Positions 28,484 to 39,148 of a stretch of 64,000 nucleotides of DNA are shown piece after piece. The notes under the pieces were generated by a model. That model was not told where the DNA came from and searched no databases. It was given only the letters and a program-made list of their open reading frames with translations. The first letter of the stretch is position 1. Each line of letters starts with the position of its first letter. The stretch spans positions 64,001 through 128,000 of the forward strand of contig JAZAMN010000008.1 in the NCBI GenBank assembly GCA_036229005.1, written 5' to 3'. Source of the stretch: Myxococcota bacterium. GTDB lineage: Bacteria; Myxococcota_A; UBA796; CAJQPC01. The translations under genes and the position numbers were made by a program.

Positions 28484-29614
<1,131 letters not shown>

Positions 29615-29690
29615 TCGGGTCTCCGGAAGGCGGGGGCGGGCTGGGAACTTGTGGCCTCTCTGTGCCACGTCGCGTTCTATGATGCAGGGC

Positions 29691-30695
29691 ATGTTCACCC
29701 TCCGCACCGAGCGCCTGGATCTGCACCCTCTGTCCATGCAGGACGCCGATCTGCTGCGGGCGCACTGGGACGATCCGGCCGTGCGCCGCTGGATGTGGGA
29801 CGGCGAGTCCCCCAGCGCCGAGCAGGTCGAGGAGATCATCACGGCCTCGGCCGAGCGCTTCGCGGAGGGCGGGGTGGGGCTGTGGTCTCTGCGCTCCGAG
29901 GGGTGGCTGATCGGGGTCGCGGGGCTGCAGCCAGTGACGGGTCATCCCGAGCACACCGAGCTGCTCACCTCCATACAGCCCGCCTGGTGGGGACAGGGGC
30001 TGGCCACCGAGGCCGCCGTCGAGGTGCTGCGATCCGGCTTCGCGTCCGGCATCGAGCACGTGGTGGTGGGCGAGACCGACAAGCTCCACACGCGCGGCCG
30101 CTCCTTCGTGGTGGGCCTGGGCTTCTCGGGGGTGCTGGAGCTGACGCAGCCCCTGGGCCAGGTGCGCTACTGGGGCCTGACGCCGGAGCGCTTCGCGCAC
30201 TTCCACCCGCTGCGCTGGCACTGGAAGAGCTTCGGCGCGCTGGACACCCGGGCGCTCTACGACCTGCTGGCCCTGCGCCAGGAGGTGTTCGTGGTCGAGC
30301 AGGAGTGCGCCTACCTGGACGCCGACGGCAAGGACCCCCAGGCCATGCACCTGCTGGGCTACGACGGTGACCGGCTCGCCGTCTATCTGCGGGCCTTCGC
30401 GCCCGGGGTGCTGCGGCGCGAGGCCGTGATCGGCCGGGTGGTCACCGCCCAGGACAGCCGGGGGGTGGGTTGGGGTCGGCGCCTGATGGAGGAGGGCATC
30501 CGCCGGGTCTGGCGACACTGGGGCCAGGGGCCCATCTTCCTGTCGGCGCAGTCGCACCTGGAGGACTGGTACCGGGCGCTGGGCTTCGAGATCTGCGGGC
30601 CGGGCTACCTGGAGGACGGCATCCCCCACCTGCCCATGTGCAACTCGGGCGAGGTGAGCGAGGTGATCGCCGACCCGCCCTCCGATCTGGCGTAG
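29691..30695 (+). CDS. tandem GNAT fusion: RimJ/RimL-like + ElaA-like acetyltransferase
   Basis: LRTERLDL...WWGQGLATEA, then LYDLLALRQEVFVVEQECAYLDADGKD...SAQSHLEDWY..LGF...EDGIPH. Confidence 0.88.
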   Translation: MFTLRTERLDLHPLSMQDADLLRAHWDDPAVRRWMWDGESPSAEQVEEIITASAERFAEGGVGLWSLRSEGWLIGVAGLQPVTGHPEHTELLTSIQPAWWGQGLATEAAVEVLRSGFASGIEHVVVGETDKLHTRGRSFVVGLGFSGVLELTQPLGQVRYWGLTPERFAHFHPLRWHWKSFGALDTRALYDLLALRQEVFVVEQECAYLDADGKDPQAMHLLGYDGDRLAVYLRAFAPGVLRREAVIGRVVTAQDSRGVGWGRRLMEEGIRRVWRHWGQGPIFLSAQSHLEDWYRALGFEICGPGYLEDGIPHLPMCNSGEVSEVIADPPSDLA

Positions 30696-30873
30696 TTCTC
30701 CGAATCACAAGTTCCGACACCCTTCGAGTGTCGGAACTTGTGCTGCAGAGAACTATTGTCTTCTCCGGGGGACACCCCCGGAAATGCGCCTCACGGCGCA
30801 ACCCCCGCGGGCCCACTCGGGCCCGGGTTCTGCCGGAAGCTCTACAGGCTTGTCATTTCGGACCGGCAGAACC
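30693..30873. other. cluster of five back-to-back hairpins between convergent genes
   Basis: 15-bp perfect stem 30706-30742, plus stems at 30764-30782, 30785-30800, 30809-30824 and 30826-30873. Confidence 0.75.
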
Positions 30874-30877
30874 AGGT

Positions 30878-31672
30878 CTACTCCAGGCAGCTCTCGGGCA
30901 GCCCGTAGCCGGAGCCGCCGCCCGCCTGGAGCTGGATGTGCACCACCTGGTTGGGCTGGGCGTTGAAGCGGCTGCGGGCGATCAGGGTGTGGCCGCCGGC
31001 GCCGTCGCTTACCCAGGCCTCCAGGGTGTTGGAGCCCGCCCGGGCGTCGAGCACAAAGAACTCGCCGCTGCGGTCGGTGGCGCTGGTCGCGGAGCTCGGG
31101 AGCCCGTCGCTGTTGGGATAGTAGGTGCTGCCGCCCTCGATCAGGACGATCTCGGCGTTGCCGACGCCCATGCCGATGCAGTCGACCACGCTGCCGTAGA
31201 CGTGCGCGCCCCCGTCGCGGATGGGCTTGCCGACCGCGCCATAGGCCACGCTGTTGGCGCTCTCGGAGACGTACTCCAGGTCCAACTCGCCCAGCTCGGG
31301 CACGGCCTTGGGCCAGGCGTTCACCCACTCACCGACGCTCACCTGCACGGAGGTCGCGGTGCACGCAGGCAAGGTCGCCGAGGCGCTCCCGTCCTGCAGG
31401 GCGACGCTGCTGCCCTCGATGGTCAGGGTCTCGCCGGTCTCCCAGCCCTCCCGCCAGTCCAGGACGCGGATGTCGGTGGGGGTGCTGGTGGTGGTGACCG
31501 GGCAGGCCTCCAGCCAGTCCGACACGCAGTCCAGATCGCCGGCCGGGGCCTCTGCGACGCTGAGGTCCTCCGGGGCCGTCCCCTGGATGTCCACGCTCTC
31601 GCAGGTGGCGGCGGAGTCGCTGTCGGAGGAGCCGCCCTTGGTGCAGGCGGCCAGCAGGATCAGGGGGAGCAT
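30878..31672 (-). CDS. hypothetical lipoprotein (carboxypeptidase-regulatory-like C-terminal part)
   Basis: MLPLILLAAC; VYGSVVDC.G..V.NA; ATDRSGEF. Confidence 0.7.
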   Translation of the reverse strand: MLPLILLAACTKGGSSDSDSAATCESVDIQGTAPEDLSVAEAPAGDLDCVSDWLEACPVTTTSTPTDIRVLDWREGWETGETLTIEGSSVALQDGSASATLPACTATSVQVSVGEWVNAWPKAVPELGELDLEYVSESANSVAYGAVGKPIRDGGAHVYGSVVDCIGMGVGNAEIVLIEGGSTYYPNSDGLPSSATSATDRSGEFFVLDARAGSNTLEAWVSDGAGGHTLIARSRFNAQPNQVVHIQLQAGGGSGYGLPESCLE

Positions 31673-31950
31673 TGCTGAGACCAGTCCGGGTCGTCGGGGT
31701 AGAGCACCGGGCTGTCGGGCAGGCGGCAGGCGTCGGTGTAGTCGTTGACCCACTGGCGGGCCTCCGACCGGGTGATGGGGCTGTCCTCGTCCCGGCACTG
31801 GGCCCAGGCGTCGGTGCTGCTGTACCGGGCCTCCCACTCCTCCATGCAGGTGGGGACATCCCCGTCCTGGGTGCAGGTGCAGTGGGCTTCGGAGAGGTCC
31901 GCCCAGTAGTCTTCGACGGTGTAGGTGCAGGCGAGGAGGAGCAGTATCAT
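31660..31950 (-). CDS. small Cys-rich lipoprotein
   Basis: MILLLLAC start, in-frame TAG 4 codons upstream, several Cys. Confidence 0.65.
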   Translation of the reverse strand: MILLLLACTYTVEDYWADLSEAHCTCTQDGDVPTCMEEWEARYSSTDAWAQCRDEDSPITRSEARQWVNDYTDACRLPDSPVLYPDDPDWSQQCSP

Positions 31951-33062
31951 GGCCCCACGCTATCCCCACCGCCTGGGCCTTGCCACGGCCCACACAGCAG
32001 GTCGGGGGGGAGGACCGCAAGCGAGGACAGGCCGGAGAGCGCCATGGCCTCGTCCAGCTCGTTGCGCAGCAGGCTGAGCACGTAGCCCACGCCAGCCGCA
32101 CCGGCCCAGGCCAGGCCCCAGAGCACGGGGCGCCCGATCCAGACGGCCTCGGCGCCCAGGGCCAGGGCCTTGAGCACGTCGCTGCCGCGCCGGATCCCGC
32201 CGTCCACGTGCAGGGTGAGGCTGTCGCCCACGGCCTGCTTGATCTCGTCCAGGGCCTGGGCGGTGGAGATGGCCCCGTCAAGCTGGCGGCCGCCGTGGTT
32301 GGACACGACGACCCCCGCCACGCCGGCATCTCTGGCGATGCGCGCGTCCTGGGCGTGGAGAACGCCCTTGATCAGGATGGGCAGGTCGGTGACCGTCCGC
32401 AGCCACTCCAGGTCCTGCCAGCCCAGGTTGGGCTCCAGCAGGCTGCCAAAGTAGGCGCCCAGGCCGGACTCGGCGGCCACCGGTGGCAGGGCCTCGCCCG
32501 GGGTGCCCGTCAGGTTCGCGCAATGCAGGTGATCGGGCAGGTGGAATCCCCGGCGGATGTCGCCCTCCCTGGTGCCCAGGATGGGGGCGTCCACGGTGAG
32601 CACCAGCGCGCTGCACCCCGCCGCCTGGGCGCGCTGGACCAGGGCCGCGGTCGCGCCCCGGTCCTTGTAGACGTAGAGCTGGAACCAGGTGGGCTGCTGG
32701 CTCGCAGCGGCCACCTGCTCGACGGGCTGGTTGGAGAGGGTCGAGAGCACCATGGGCACCCCCGCCATCCCGCTGGCGCGGGCCGTGGCCAGCTCGCCGT
32801 CGGCGTGGGCCATCCCCTGGAAGGCCATTGGGGCGACCACCAGCGGGCTGTCCTGCAGCCGCCCCAGCACCTTGCGGGCCACGCTGCGCTCCCCGACCTG
32901 CGCCAGCATGCGGGGGCGCATGCGGATGCGCTGCCAAGCCCGGGGGGCGTCGTCCAGGGTGATGTGGTCCCGCGCGCCGTCGGCGTAGTAACCCCAGGCC
33001 ATGGGGGAGAGCTGCTGCTGGGCCAGCGCGCGGAGGTCGTGGAGGTTCAGGGGGGTGTCCAT
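31947..33062 (-). CDS. FMN-dependent alpha-hydroxy-acid oxidase/dehydrogenase
   Basis: APMAFQ, WFQLY, LTVDAP, IKGV, SNHGGRQLD, DGGIRRGSDVLKALALGA. Confidence 0.95.
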   Translation of the reverse strand: MDTPLNLHDLRALAQQQLSPMAWGYYADGARDHITLDDAPRAWQRIRMRPRMLAQVGERSVARKVLGRLQDSPLVVAPMAFQGMAHADGELATARASGMAGVPMVLSTLSNQPVEQVAAASQQPTWFQLYVYKDRGATAALVQRAQAAGCSALVLTVDAPILGTREGDIRRGFHLPDHLHCANLTGTPGEALPPVAAESGLGAYFGSLLEPNLGWQDLEWLRTVTDLPILIKGVLHAQDARIARDAGVAGVVVSNHGGRQLDGAISTAQALDEIKQAVGDSLTLHVDGGIRRGSDVLKALALGAEAVWIGRPVLWGLAWAGAAGVGYVLSLLRNELDEAMALSGLSSLAVLPPDLLCGPWQGPGGGDSVGP

Positions 33063-33285
33063 CGGAGATCTATAGCGTTGTCCGGGGACTCTCGGGGGGC
33101 CGGGATTGGGTGTGTTGGAATGTGCTCAGGTGTATGGCTGGATGCACAGAGTTCTCAAAAGCTGATGGATGGCGGTTGCTTAGGGGTGTTGTACGGACTT
33201 TTCAGGGACCCTTTTGTACAGTACATGTGTGAGCTGTCTACCGAAGGTGTCATCCCAAGTGTCCGAAAACACGTTGGCTATAGAG

Positions 33286-33302
33286 TTGGCACGGGTCCTG
33301 CA
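33286..33302 (+). promoter_or_regulatory. sigma-54 (-24/-12) promoter
   Basis: TTGGCACGGGTCCTGCA: GG at 33288-89 and GC at 33300-01 with the canonical 10-nt gap (consensus TGGCACG-N4-TTGC); predicted start about 33313. Confidence 0.75.
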
Positions 33303-33312
33303 AACTACCCCT

Positions 33313-34925
33313 ATGACACCCGGCACAGTCCGGAGGTCAACCGAGAAAGACGCTCGGCACGTTCTTTGACGTTGACATCACTGATTGCAGATGGCCGCTG
33401 GGCCGGACTCCTGTCGGAGTCAGTCACTCGGGAGACCGGGAGACGGAAAGGAACCAGCGCCCTGGGATGCCTCTTCGGAGGGCCAGACCCAGGGGACCCA
33501 CCCAGCAAGACCAAGGCGACTTGGGCGAGCAGGGAGCGGGTCGGAGCACAGACGGAGCCTTCGGGCGACGAATGAGCCCCAGCCGGAGCGCACCGAGGTC
33601 CGCCTCGATGCCGCGAAAGGCGCGCTGCAGTCGGAAACAGAAGCCCATGGAAGAATCGAGCGGGCGCCCATCGGAAACGGTGGACGAACGCAACGGACTC
33701 TCTCAGCGGAGAAAAGCCTTGGAGTCGCGAGCAGGACAGCCCTCCGGCGGTCCAGCAGAAGCGCAGCCCTTCGGGGAGGCGCGGCAAGTCAGCCCACGTA
33801 CCTATGCGGAGGAACTGGCGAGAACGACAAGAAGGAAGCGCGGGTGCGGTGACGCATCAGCGGCTGCTGGAGAGGGAAAGTCTTTGAAGGGATCACGCTG
33901 TGGAAGCCAGCCGAAGGGGTCAAAGCGCGCAAGCGTCAAGACCAGGATGCTCTCAGAAGGAGCAGCCCAAGCGGAGGTGACGGGAACACAGCGAACCTCA
34001 TGACCGGTAGCAGGATGCAACAAGCCTGCAGCCCAGGTGCCCAGGCCGCCAGGGAGCTGAGAAAGCTCAAGGTGGCGCACGGCCGACCCGCTGGGGAAGG
34101 CACAAAGCATGGAAGAGCACGGCGAGCACAGCAATGTGCGCGGCGAGCGGTGACTGGAGACAGTCGCTGGGGTCAGGTAGGCGTCGAGGCCGACCAGACA
34201 CACGCCCAAGGCCATGTGGGAGCAAGCACCGCTCCGAGAAACCCGCTGGTGACAGCGAGGGTGGAACGGAGCTCGGGACACGACAAGGAAAGCCCCGGAG
34301 AGGGCGCTCAGAGCGGCGTTGGTGACAGCGCAGGCGGGGCGACCAGTAGGGACTGGAGCGGCGTGTCCGACGGAGATGTCGGTGGAGAGGCGGAAAAACC
34401 CTCGGGAGAAGGAGACGGCGAGCGGAAGCGACAGACCAAGCTCACAGGCAGGTCAGCAAACAGCACCTTGGTGTTGAGAGCGGGCAGGCTGCCGACTCAG
34501 GACGATTGGAAGAGTCTGAAAAGGCAGGCGCAGAAGGACAGAAGGACGCAGCAGACCAGAGGTTTCGGCCACTGGAACGCAGAGCGGACTGCGAGAGAAA
34601 CCTTGAAGGTCCCACCGATCCAGCATGTTGAACAGACATGGCGGTGAAGGCCAGGAAGGGACGCGGGAAAGAGCAACGACCCGCATCGCGGCCCAGGAAG
34701 GTCAACAGCAATGTTGAACGGCGACCTTGAGGTTCAGGCGAACCCCATATCAGGCGTACCGGCGCGCAAGCACCGGAGAGAGCCAAACGGTCCCGCATTC
34801 TCTGAAAGGAACCCTCCTTGGGCCGGGTGTCACCCTCCACCCCACTGGGACGGAGGGAGAAGGCAGACCTTGCCTTCAACAACAAAGCCCCGAACCACCT
34901 TGGTGGTTCGGGGCTTTGTTGCGTT
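33313..34925 (+). ncRNA. candidate giant (~1.6 kb) structured non-coding RNA of unassigned class
   Basis: No ORF with the genome's codon bias; A/purine-rich + strand; at least 11 GNRA/UUCG-capped hairpins with G-U pairs; bounded by a sigma-54 promoter and a terminator. Confidence 0.7.
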
Positions 34926-34926
34926 T
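34880..34926. terminator. strong, probably bidirectional intrinsic terminator
   Basis: CAACAAAGCCCCGAACCAC-CTTG-GTGGTTCGGGGCTTTGTTG perfect stem with T-rich tails on both strands; lies between the ncRNA candidate and convergent uvrB. Confidence 0.88.
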
Positions 34927-34976
34927 GGGACTCAGGATCAAGGATCCAGAGCGCTCCTTGAGTCCTTCCCCGCGAC

Positions 34977-36992
<2,016 letters not shown>

Positions 36993-37105
36993 CGCCAGCC
37001 CCTAACAGATGTTCAGTGCGCGGGCATCCAGGCGGATGTGGGACGGCGGAAGGGTCCCATCGCCGGGCTCGGACCATAGGCTGCGGCCCACCCCCGGGAG
37101 GCTCC

Positions 37106-38401
37106 ATGCTCGCTGTGATCGCCCTGTTGATGACCCCCCTCGCCTCCGCGGACTGGCGCGACACCAACGTCGGAGACTGGGGCGCCAGCGACTGGAGAGA
37201 GGCCGGCGCGGAGTGGCCGCAGGAGGTCGACGCGTCCTGGGAGGCGCTGCAGGTCCTCGCTGAGCGACTGGAGGGGCTCAAGGAGGACACCGGGGCTCCG
37301 GGGTGGGCCGAGCAGGCCCAGGCGCTGCGGGCAGACCTCGAAGCCCACGCGCAGGCGCGCTTCCACTGGGGCTACAACACGCAGGTCATCGGAGAGGACC
37401 GGGGCGCAGAGCACCTGGACGCCGAGACCCACGCCCGCGTGCAGCAGGCGCAGGCCAGGCAGGCCGAGCTGGAGGCGCTCTTCTACACCCTGGACACAAC
37501 GCTCCATGCGCTCTGGCTCCAGCACCTGGTCGACAGCGAGGCGTCCGACCGCTCCGAGCGGGTGATGGCGGCCGGCGACCTGCTCGGGGCCATCGGCTCC
37601 TTCGACCGACAGCCCGGCTACCCCTTCGACGAGCAGGCCGTGCTCCTGGGCCTCCAGCACAACGAGGGGAACGCTGCCTACGCGGCCACCGCCGAGCTCT
37701 GCCTGGAGCTCTGCACCGACCCGCAGGCGCTGGAGCTCTCCCAGCAGCTCCTGGAGATCGCCGCCGACCCCCTCCAGAACGGCGGCATGGTCGTCTACAC
37801 GGGCGACGAGGCGCACGAGATGCAAGGCATCAACGACGACCCCGAGCGCGGTCCCCTGGTGCGTTACAGCGGAGACATCTCCCTGCGCCGCCTGCCCAGC
37901 GCCCCCGCCAACCAGCTCCAGACCCGGGTGGATCTGCGCCTGGGCCGCAAGCGCGTGGGCGTGTTCGTGGGCGGGCGCTACCAGAAGGGTCTCCAGGAGG
38001 CCAGCAGCGGCTTCGCGGCGCAGGGCGGGCTCAGCCTGGACGTGGTCGCCCACCAACGCCTCCAGCTCTGGGCCAACGTGGGCTTGAGCTACGACGGCTT
38101 CGGGGCCACCGACGCGCCCGAGTACCACCAGGTGCGCGATCTGGGCCTGGTCGCCCCCGTGACGCTGGCCCTCCCGCTCGGCGACAAGCTCACTCTGTCC
38201 TGGTCCGCCGAGCCCCGCTGGACCCGCTCCCCCGACCGCGTCAACGACCAGCTCAGCGGCCTGGACGAGCTCCGGACCGGGCCCCGCCTGCAACTCGACG
38301 CCTTCGGGGACCTGGGCCTGGTGATCGCCGGGGAGCGCATGTGGGTCCCCACGGGCACCGTCAACGCCGTCAGCGTCGGGCTCTGCAGCGTCTCTCGCTG
38401 A
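37106..38401 (+). CDS. exported protein, helical N-domain plus probable beta-barrel C-domain
   Basis: GGAGG RBS; signal peptide MLAVIALLMTPLASA; amphipathic strands in the C-terminal third. Confidence 0.65.
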   Translation: MLAVIALLMTPLASADWRDTNVGDWGASDWREAGAEWPQEVDASWEALQVLAERLEGLKEDTGAPGWAEQAQALRADLEAHAQARFHWGYNTQVIGEDRGAEHLDAETHARVQQAQARQAELEALFYTLDTTLHALWLQHLVDSEASDRSERVMAAGDLLGAIGSFDRQPGYPFDEQAVLLGLQHNEGNAAYAATAELCLELCTDPQALELSQQLLEIAADPLQNGGMVVYTGDEAHEMQGINDDPERGPLVRYSGDISLRRLPSAPANQLQTRVDLRLGRKRVGVFVGGRYQKGLQEASSGFAAQGGLSLDVVAHQRLQLWANVGLSYDGFGATDAPEYHQVRDLGLVAPVTLALPLGDKLTLSWSAEPRWTRSPDRVNDQLSGLDELRTGPRLQLDAFGDLGLVIAGERMWVPTGTVNAVSVGLCSVSR

Positions 38402-39148
38402 TCAGGGGGCCACCTGCTGCATCAGCCACAGCATCTCCCGCCCGATCTCCTCGCTCTTGGCCAGGTAGGTCGCGGTCTCGTCCGGGCTGCCGTCGCTGGC
38501 CTTGGGGTCCAGGTAGGGCAGGGACACGCGCAGCTCGGCCCCAGGCACGTAGGGGCAGCTCGCGTCCGCCTCCGAGCACACCATCACCGCCGCGAAGCCC
38601 TGGCTGGGGTTGTAGGCGTCGCCGAAGGTCTTTGAGAAGCCCCGCAGGTCCGGCAGCGCAGGCCCCAGGCTCGTCGCGTACACGGTGTTCTGCGACCCGA
38701 TGACCTCGCCGGTGGACGTGATGTGCATTCCGTGGGTCTGCAGGGCCCTCACTGCCCGAGGGTTGAACGCAGTGGCCTCCGTACCACCCGACCAGCTCTC
38801 CACCCCTTGGACCCCAAGCTGCTCGGCGGCCGCCTGAGCCCAGAGCTGCCCCATGTGGCTGCGGCGGGAGTTGTGCGTGCAGACGAACAGCAGGTGCGCA
38901 GGCTCTCCAGCGGCCTGCTTCTCGGCGATCCAGCCGGCCAGCTCACCCAGGGTCTCGCGGCGCTCGGCGCTCAGGGTGTCGGGGGCGTCCAGAGCGGACC
39001 AGCCATTCAGGGTCGCGGCCAGCTCGGGGTGCAGAGGAGAGGTCATCGGGGCCTCCAAAGCTGGGGCCTGCACCGCCTGGTCTGGCGGGGCCTCCACCAC
39101 CTGAGGGGACTTCGGCGCGCAAGCGAGGACAAGCTGGAGCAGGTTCAT
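38402..39148 (-). CDS. LMW-PTP/ArsC-like phosphatase/reductase with lipoprotein-like N-terminus
   Basis: P-loop FVCTHNSRRS, SGGTEATAFNPRA, CSEADASCP, YLDPK. Confidence 0.85.
   Translation of the reverse strand: MNLLQLVLACAPKSPQVVEAPPDQAVQAPALEAPMTSPLHPELAATLNGWSALDAPDTLSAERRETLGELAGWIAEKQAAGEPAHLLFVCTHNSRRSHMGQLWAQAAAEQLGVQGVESWSGGTEATAFNPRAVRALQTHGMHITSTGEVIGSQNTVYATSLGPALPDLRGFSKTFGDAYNPSQGFAAVMVCSEADASCPYVPGAELRVSLPYLDPKASDGSPDETATYLAKSEEIGREMLWLMQQVAP

Follow-up and report, generated by a model that had tools for sequence, protein, structure and literature searches.

Large ornate RNAs are a rarity in bacteria, and the handful of classes described so far has given RNA-only cages and stress-related RNPs. 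CsrB and CrcZ are purine-rich RNAs with repeated motifs that act as protein sponges, and CrcZ is driven by sigma-54. OLE is marked by a conserved adjacent gene for its partner protein. According to the available text of PMC3413148 and PMC12054373, OLE is a large, ornate, chromosomal and highly expressed bacterial non-coding RNA whose function is unsettled. The available text of PMC12286853 describes GOLLD and ROOL as multi-junction folds with variable linkers that form RNA-only cages, and it describes ROOL, GOLLD and OLE as assembling via kissing loops and A-minor contacts. The mean length of ROOL is 581 nt, and 800 nt is surpassed by many GOLLD RNAs (parts of PMC5737381 and PMC12286853). The myxobacterial non-coding RNA Pxr requires a sigma-54 response regulator (PMC10217877, in part), and SSR42, at 1233 nt, is a bacterial non-coding RNA longer than 1 kb (10.1101/2025.09.11.675593, in part).

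The gene described here shares with OLE the character of a large ornate chromosomal bacterial non-coding RNA, with Pxr a link to sigma-54 in myxobacteria, and with GOLLD and ROOL a multi-junction fold, a kissing loop and variable inserted segments. It lies at 33313..34925 on the + strand of the window, by which we mean the whole 64-kb stretch of DNA that was analysed, and it is a stand-alone gene for a large folded RNA with no protein product. The gene is approximately 1,610 nt long including its terminator. A sigma-54 (–24/–12) promoter box, TTGGCAC-N6-TGCA, is found at 33286..33302 (+) with a predicted +1 near 33313, and at the other end a 19-bp hairpin resembling an intrinsic terminator, with a U-rich tail, folds at 34880..34925 (+) as the initial annotation had proposed. 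Between this terminator and the closing helix P1 the window copy has two extra hairpins (34832-34879) that are characteristic of its clade and absent from most members. Upstream is a divergent gene for an FMN-dependent dehydrogenase (31947..33062, –) and downstream a convergent uvrB (34977..36992, –); neither is conserved as a neighbour. A separate perfect hairpin of at least 15 bp at 30706-30742, between convergent genes, is probably a two-way terminator.

The initial annotation had taken the open reading frames of this region to be non-coding, and the data agree. GC content per frame position is flat across the RNA region (0.64/0.61/0.65) as compared to uvrB (0.96/0.39/0.67). Nine homolog pairs contain 336 indels, of which only 35 have a length divisible by three, and their substitutions are spread evenly across frame positions. 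The two ORFs tested from the region had no Pfam match. The purine-rich + strand that had been claimed is also present, with an AT skew of +0.42 to +0.49 across 33400-34800; no other 1.2-kb windows in the 6.4-Mb genome are as purine-skewed as this region and its paralog. A strongly A-rich window elsewhere in the genome (L034 1930-6732, on G000:C54) lies inside a 1,600-codon ORF and is not a third copy of the RNA. GNRA or UUCG hairpins of at least 4 bp number 13 on the + strand and 0 on the – strand, and 500 dinucleotide shuffles gave 1.4 ± 1.2 with a maximum of 7. Among 7,892 genome tiles, with a mean of 1.0 such hairpin per tile, the highest count is 13 and the next is 7. All 12 of the tetraloop hairpins originally listed fold where they had been placed, and by stability 11 of the 12 prefer the + strand, the exception being the one at 34759-76. 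The first 988 nt fold with z = –3.6 (20 shuffles).

A second full-length copy with 73% identity occurs in the same genome (G000:C24:183722-185349), and it is not syntenic with the window copy. BLAST gave matches in 23 of 61 genomes, some of the weakest being chance. We built a covariance model, R1, from the central domain and searched with it within the phylum. Within the order, 150 genomes were searched and 74 of them match model R1 (31 of the 61 of high quality), and six of seven families are positive, the remaining one (f2) having 0 matches in 10 genomes. Outside the order 27 of 80 genomes have a match: 13 of 18 from other orders of the same class and 14 of 62 hand-picked genomes from other classes of the phylum. 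A strict promoter-plus-motif pattern had found 18 of 401 genomes, all within the order, and the restriction to one order that this suggested was overturned by the covariance model. In the order, 76 of the 150 genomes gave no match to this model, and the RNA is therefore probably dispensable.

A pattern for the central motif was also applied to larger collections. It found 43 loci in the genome collection, including MAGs of Myxococcota and Deltaproteobacteria as well as other groups, and at least 120 loci in the metagenome collection, where an estimated ~2,400 stored stretches place the family, as discrete contigs, in many environmental assemblies. There was no family match in phage or plasmid records, nor in two of three viral scans. 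The one locus from the viral collection (L082, 1-1530 and 2285-3814) is a family member lacking promoter and terminator and fused to a gene for an RNA-virus polymerase (Pfam RdRP_3); most probably this is a chimera created when an RNA sample was assembled.

Members, which come from uncultured myxobacteria-like bacteria, differ widely in length. In the order, the distance from promoter to terminator is 1,174-3,329 nt in the 26 of 42 loci where a hairpin of 10-19 bp was called automatically in the terminator place. Distant members are compact, at ~0.8-1.1 kb as judged by the positions of promoter, motif and terminator, and they retain the domain order; the length differences arise from inserted hairpins. 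One genome (G060) holds three members of ~2.65 kb (L030, L035 and L036) and another locus (L081) holds one of 3.3 kb, all four enlarged by 1.4–2 kb of tetraloop hairpins at a single site. Full copies in tandem or near-tandem, 1.6–3.6 kb apart and differing in the lengths of their insertions, are seen at L230 (G298), L231 (G454) and L232 (G031). In a variable segment of L227 (~2650-2990, in G194) there is a ~350-nt insert with repeated inverted ends that looks like the remnant of an insertion sequence, perhaps an IS21-like one.

The initial annotation had described the RNA as dependent on sigma-54. In the order, 43 unique genomic loci include enough DNA upstream of the RNA, and a strict sigma-54 box at fixed spacing precedes 41 of them (chance ~0.0004). 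One of the two loci without a box is a slicing artefact, and the box is seen there in other data. The host genome contains an rpoN domain, and a scan for sigma-70 promoters gave 0 matches. An IHF-like site upstream of 22 of 43 loci, against a rate of 22% in shuffles, is no more than suggestive. The conservation of the box thus points to sigma-54-dependent transcription within the order. Because the box is present at just 5 of 56 loci in distant relatives, sigma-54 control appears to be branch-specific, and the original claim does not extend to them.

The fold was assessed on 125 sequences, with an effective number of 104 and a mean identity of 54%, which were joined in a stitched alignment of 1,125 columns. 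Among the top 25 covarying column pairs 76% are Watson–Crick, and among the top 50 the figure is 66%, compared to a background of 4%. Strong covariation exceeds a tree-based null (8 replicates): 30 pairs were seen at G≥45 versus 3.9 in the null, and 14 at G≥60 versus 0.4. At G 20–25 the counts do not exceed the null, so the weaker of the 33 helices we assembled, which were obtained by stacking of sub-threshold pairs, rest on stacking only. For the central domain, RNAalifold returned the same fold from 49 rows, with 29 of 35 pairs compensatory; most of these rows overlap the 125-sequence set, and one misplaced row (L219) is noise in both this alignment and model R1. In 57 distant members, none of which was in the first alignment, 95% of the top 20 pairs are Watson–Crick; several of the covarying pairs fall outside the modelled domain, those inside it being biased towards model R1. 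An unconstrained fold of the window copy as a single sequence misses most long-range helices, and forcing 82 pairs on it costs 3.4% of the folding energy.

The ends of the RNA are joined by the closing helix P1, whose 5′ strand at 33315..33323 (+) has a 9-bp complement at 34823..34831 (+), just before the terminator. Across loci, the P1 strands of one locus pair better with each other than with the mean of swapped strands in 21 of 26 cases (–18.7 versus –15.2 kcal/mol), and the own pair ranks in the top tenth in 12 of 26. Three conserved domains follow, all on the + strand. The 5′ domain (33644..33891) consists of covarying helices with variable hairpins inserted, namely module M1 (33644-54 with 33881-91), a helix formed by 33698-709 with 33864-74, and module M2 (33716-27 with 33825-36). 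The central domain (33996..34390) is the most conserved and includes a ~230-nt clade-specific insertion; it holds modules M3 (33996-34008 with 34378-90) and M4 (34046-76). The 3′ domain (34398..34810) again has covarying helices, with modules M5 (34398-408 with 34800-10), M6 (34515-27 with 34743-55), M8 (34536-46 with 34725-35) and M7 (34601-11 with 34649-59) and a hairpin at 34663-84. This conserved core of long-range helices was absent from the initial annotation, and most of the hairpins listed there lie in variable insertions. The RNA is longer than 500 nt, is non-coding and has a covarying multi-junction fold with a pseudoknot, and it therefore belongs to the descriptive class of large ornate bacterial non-coding RNAs.

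Evidence for transcription came from public sequencing runs. Among 24 listed runs, 20 contain all or part of the stretch and 13 are recorded as RNA, with the limits that the runs were selected for containing this stretch and that their contigs carry neither strand nor level. Four runs were examined over 29600-38600, three of them metatranscriptomes from two studies and one guessed to be RNA. Run contigs cover 33326-34824, with word depths of hundreds to thousands in three RNA runs, and the flanking bins are zero apart from pieces that are short and divergent and fall mainly on uvrB. In one run (X2), the loose ends at 33326 and 34824 look like sequencing adapters. The coverage and the near absence of flank would fit the transcript of ~1.6 kb predicted at the outset. 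Some run contigs bear the letters of the paralog, therefore both copy types are present. The 80 fully fetched contigs from the metagenome collection are only 1.0–2.7 kb long. Of those with the 5′ motif, 57 of 59 begin no more than 66 nt from it and two extend to the promoter; at the other end, the last module lies at most 39 nt from the contig end in 51 of 61. These ends look like those of assemblies of a discrete transcript, a reading that applies to contigs of unstated library type. Contig ends cluster at the inner edges of P1, which could come from processing or from library preparation. Together, homologs, covariation, the lack of a coding signal and coverage in RNA runs support the original view of an independently transcribed, rRNA-sized structured RNA of unassigned class.

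Several motifs recur in the fold. Up to nine helices carry the same 3x3 internal loop, 5′-GAR-3′ opposite 5′-RNG-3′, and three of these copies show A·A / G·G covariation (G 63, 73 and 47); modules M0 and M4 are degenerate in the window copy. We presume that this loop resembles the bacterial loop E submotif, the one bound by L25, and our literature search for this likeness found no confirmation. The central domain also has two hairpins of the T-loop type, by the motif definition in the available text of PMC4810234. The first (34010..34029, +) has UGCAA plus CA, or UGAAA plus CA in distant members; its closing pair swaps between A·G and G·A (60 A/G and 56 G/A of 116), and in some distant members the loop is replaced by a tetraloop. 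The second (34054..34068, +) has the loop G-UGAGA-AA-C, in which positions 1 and 5 covary as U·A or G·G (67 U/A and 38 G/G of 116). A loop–loop pseudoknot, UGGN:NCCA, is supported by covariation in the family (G=41). In the window copy its 5′ loop is GCU at 34090..34092 (+), placed by eye from the alignment (UGGC in the paralog and most members), and its 3′ loop is AGC at 34672..34674 (+; GCCA in the paralog). With the window loop so placed, GCU:AGC in the window copy versus GGC:GCC in the paralog amounts to two compensatory changes; an insertion in the window's clade misaligns this pseudoknot. Symmetric bridges in GOLLD and OLE are marked by palindromic covarying loops; we saw no clear loop of this type here, and the conserved 4-mer palindromes ACGU, UGCA and GGCC are short and partly paired. 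Near the 5′ end, the pyrimidine-rich motif UCUUUGAC (33363..33370, +) is near-invariant, with 93–100% conservation per position in the 125-row set and some positions varying in distant members. Covariation gave no pairing partner for UCUUUGAC in either set. It may be complementary to a 16S rRNA segment and may resemble a tRNA-Gln anticodon loop; against such readings, distant members vary in the motif and the assembly contains no 16S gene.

When 224 flanking ORFs were compared there was no conserved neighbour gene, the largest homolog cluster covering 7 of 70 loci; 12 flanking proteins were run against Pfam, and a tRNA gene was near the RNA in 1 of 70 loci. CsrA and Hfq had no match in the host genome (G000, 94% complete). 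The conserved positions cluster in packing motifs, and the analysis turned up no partner gene, no complementarity to a target and neither CsrA nor Hfq, so the reading we favour, tentatively, is that the RNA acts as a stable structural scaffold or a self-assembling RNA rather than as a base-pairing regulator. In this model, an activator would turn on the sigma-54 promoter in some physiological state and the ends of the RNA would pair as P1, protecting it. The approximately nine purine-rich 3x3 loops, the two T-loops, junction adenosines and the kissing loop would pack helices within or between chains, while the tetraloop-capped insertions would point outward like the expansion segments of rRNA. 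The invariant, single-stranded UCUUUGAC would be the best candidate for a functional contact. The threefold range of lengths and the presence of divergent paralogs in one cell fit poorly with a closed symmetric cage.

The up to nine copies of one motif, three of them with the same A·A / G·G covariation, and the several gene copies per genome would also suit a multivalent sponge comparable to CsrB and CrcZ, in which the 3x3 loops titrate one RNA-binding protein upon sigma-54 activation. ANGGA occurs 23 times versus 13.4 ± 3.6 in shuffles. On the other side, CANGGA is not enriched (5 versus 4.2), the host genome yielded neither CsrA nor Hfq, no neighbouring gene is conserved, and the fixed nested topology of the modules with its tertiary contacts exceeds what a sponge needs. 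We consider this unlikely. A role in binding tRNA or the ribosome is distinctly unlikely. Here, the central T-loops would interdigitate as a platform for the tRNA elbow with UCUUUGAC as a second contact. In favour, the domain with the strongest conservation holds both T-loop-type loops, spaced by 30 nt, and distant members retain them; paired T-loops are also what RNase P, T-boxes and the L1 stalk use to bind the elbow of tRNA (PMC4810234, in part). Single T-loops, however, are common packing elements, the top pairs include no covariation between the two, and the first is swapped for a tetraloop in some distant members; in addition, a tRNA gene is nearby at only 1 of 70 loci, and separate genes for RNase P RNA, SRP RNA and tmRNA are present in the genome.

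It is quite improbable, in our estimate, that the RNA is a new type of large ribozyme or ligand-binding RNA whose active site is formed by the invariant residues. Its complex conserved core does contain invariant unpaired residues, large bacterial RNAs are often catalytic (PMC5737381, in part), and the contig ends at the inner edges of P1 could reflect processing. Against this, library preparation can also give such clustering, neither the window nor 20 distant loci had an Rfam match to a ribozyme or intron, and the gene is bounded by a promoter and a terminator rather than being inserted in other genes. A selfish or mobile RNA element, multiplying by self-copying, would account for the one to several copies per genome, the tandem copies, the shifting neighbourhoods, including the lack of synteny between window copy and paralog, and the patchy presence. 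Yet 41 of 43 copies are accompanied by their promoter, which is not part of the transcript, therefore they move as DNA; no neighbour protein recurs beyond local synteny (largest cluster 7 of 70, 12 proteins Pfam-tested), phage and plasmid records gave no match and the single viral match looks chimeric, which makes this idea very improbable. Finally, several ORFs of 80–215 codons overlap the region, but with mostly frame-breaking indels, no codon periodicity, no Pfam match and strong base-pair covariation, an unannotated coding gene or structureless intergenic DNA can practically be dismissed.

A bolder form of the scaffold or self-assembly reading, possible but doubtful in our view, would be a class of giant RNA machine, both new and old, found across the myxobacteria-like radiation. 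In some members, of up to 3.3 kb, it would equal or exceed the rRNAs in size; it would be built of about nine repeats of a helical module and be made in bulk by natural communities, and it would form a particle that binds tRNA, ribosomes or protein via the T-loops and UCUUUGAC.

As a comparison with known RNAs, Rfam 15 at its gathering scores, with classes that include rRNA, RNase P, tmRNA, group I/II introns, OLE, GOLLD, ROOL and Pxr, gave 0 matches in the 64-kb window and 0 in 20 distant loci, as the initial annotation had expected for the region of the RNA. Ranking by E-value added only chance matches at the level of terminators (best E 0.13–0.27, far below cut-offs), among them a weak one to Pxr that falls on the end with the terminator (E 0.27, 23 of 80 bits). 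Replacement of RNase P, SRP or tmRNA was considered and rejected, all three canonical RNAs being present elsewhere in the genome. 6S RNA and 16S rRNA were not found in the 94% complete assembly, which is uninformative. We found no description of this RNA family in the openly accessible literature; motifs that appear solely in the supplement of PMC5737381 may bear on its novelty. Neither by sequence nor by fold does the family match a catalogued class.

OLE is ~600 nt long, occurs in Bacillota and acts with OLE-associated proteins, whereas this RNA is 0.8–3.3 kb long, has no Rfam match to OLE and, unlike OLE, has no conserved adjoining gene, its largest neighbour cluster being 7 of 70 loci. The Pxr model is 109 nt, and its sole match here scores 23 bits against a cut-off of 80, at the terminator end. 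In CsrB and CrcZ the repeats are GGA hairpin loops or A-rich single strands, whereas here they are internal loops in long-range helices. GOLLD and ROOL are often found in prophages or near tRNAs, unlike this family, which was not found in phage and plasmid sets and is not near tRNAs. Bacterial non-coding RNAs above 1 kb exist, SSR42 (1233 nt) for example, so size alone is not unique; the unusual part is size combined with a covarying multi-domain fold. The family is larger than the known large ornate classes, GOLLD and ROOL included, its compact 0.8–1.1 kb form suits cryo-EM, and its architecture, built on a repeated internal-loop module, is relevant to the evolution of big RNAs through duplication. 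Should the RNA turn out to form a cage as ROOL and GOLLD do, the family would count as a variant of theirs.
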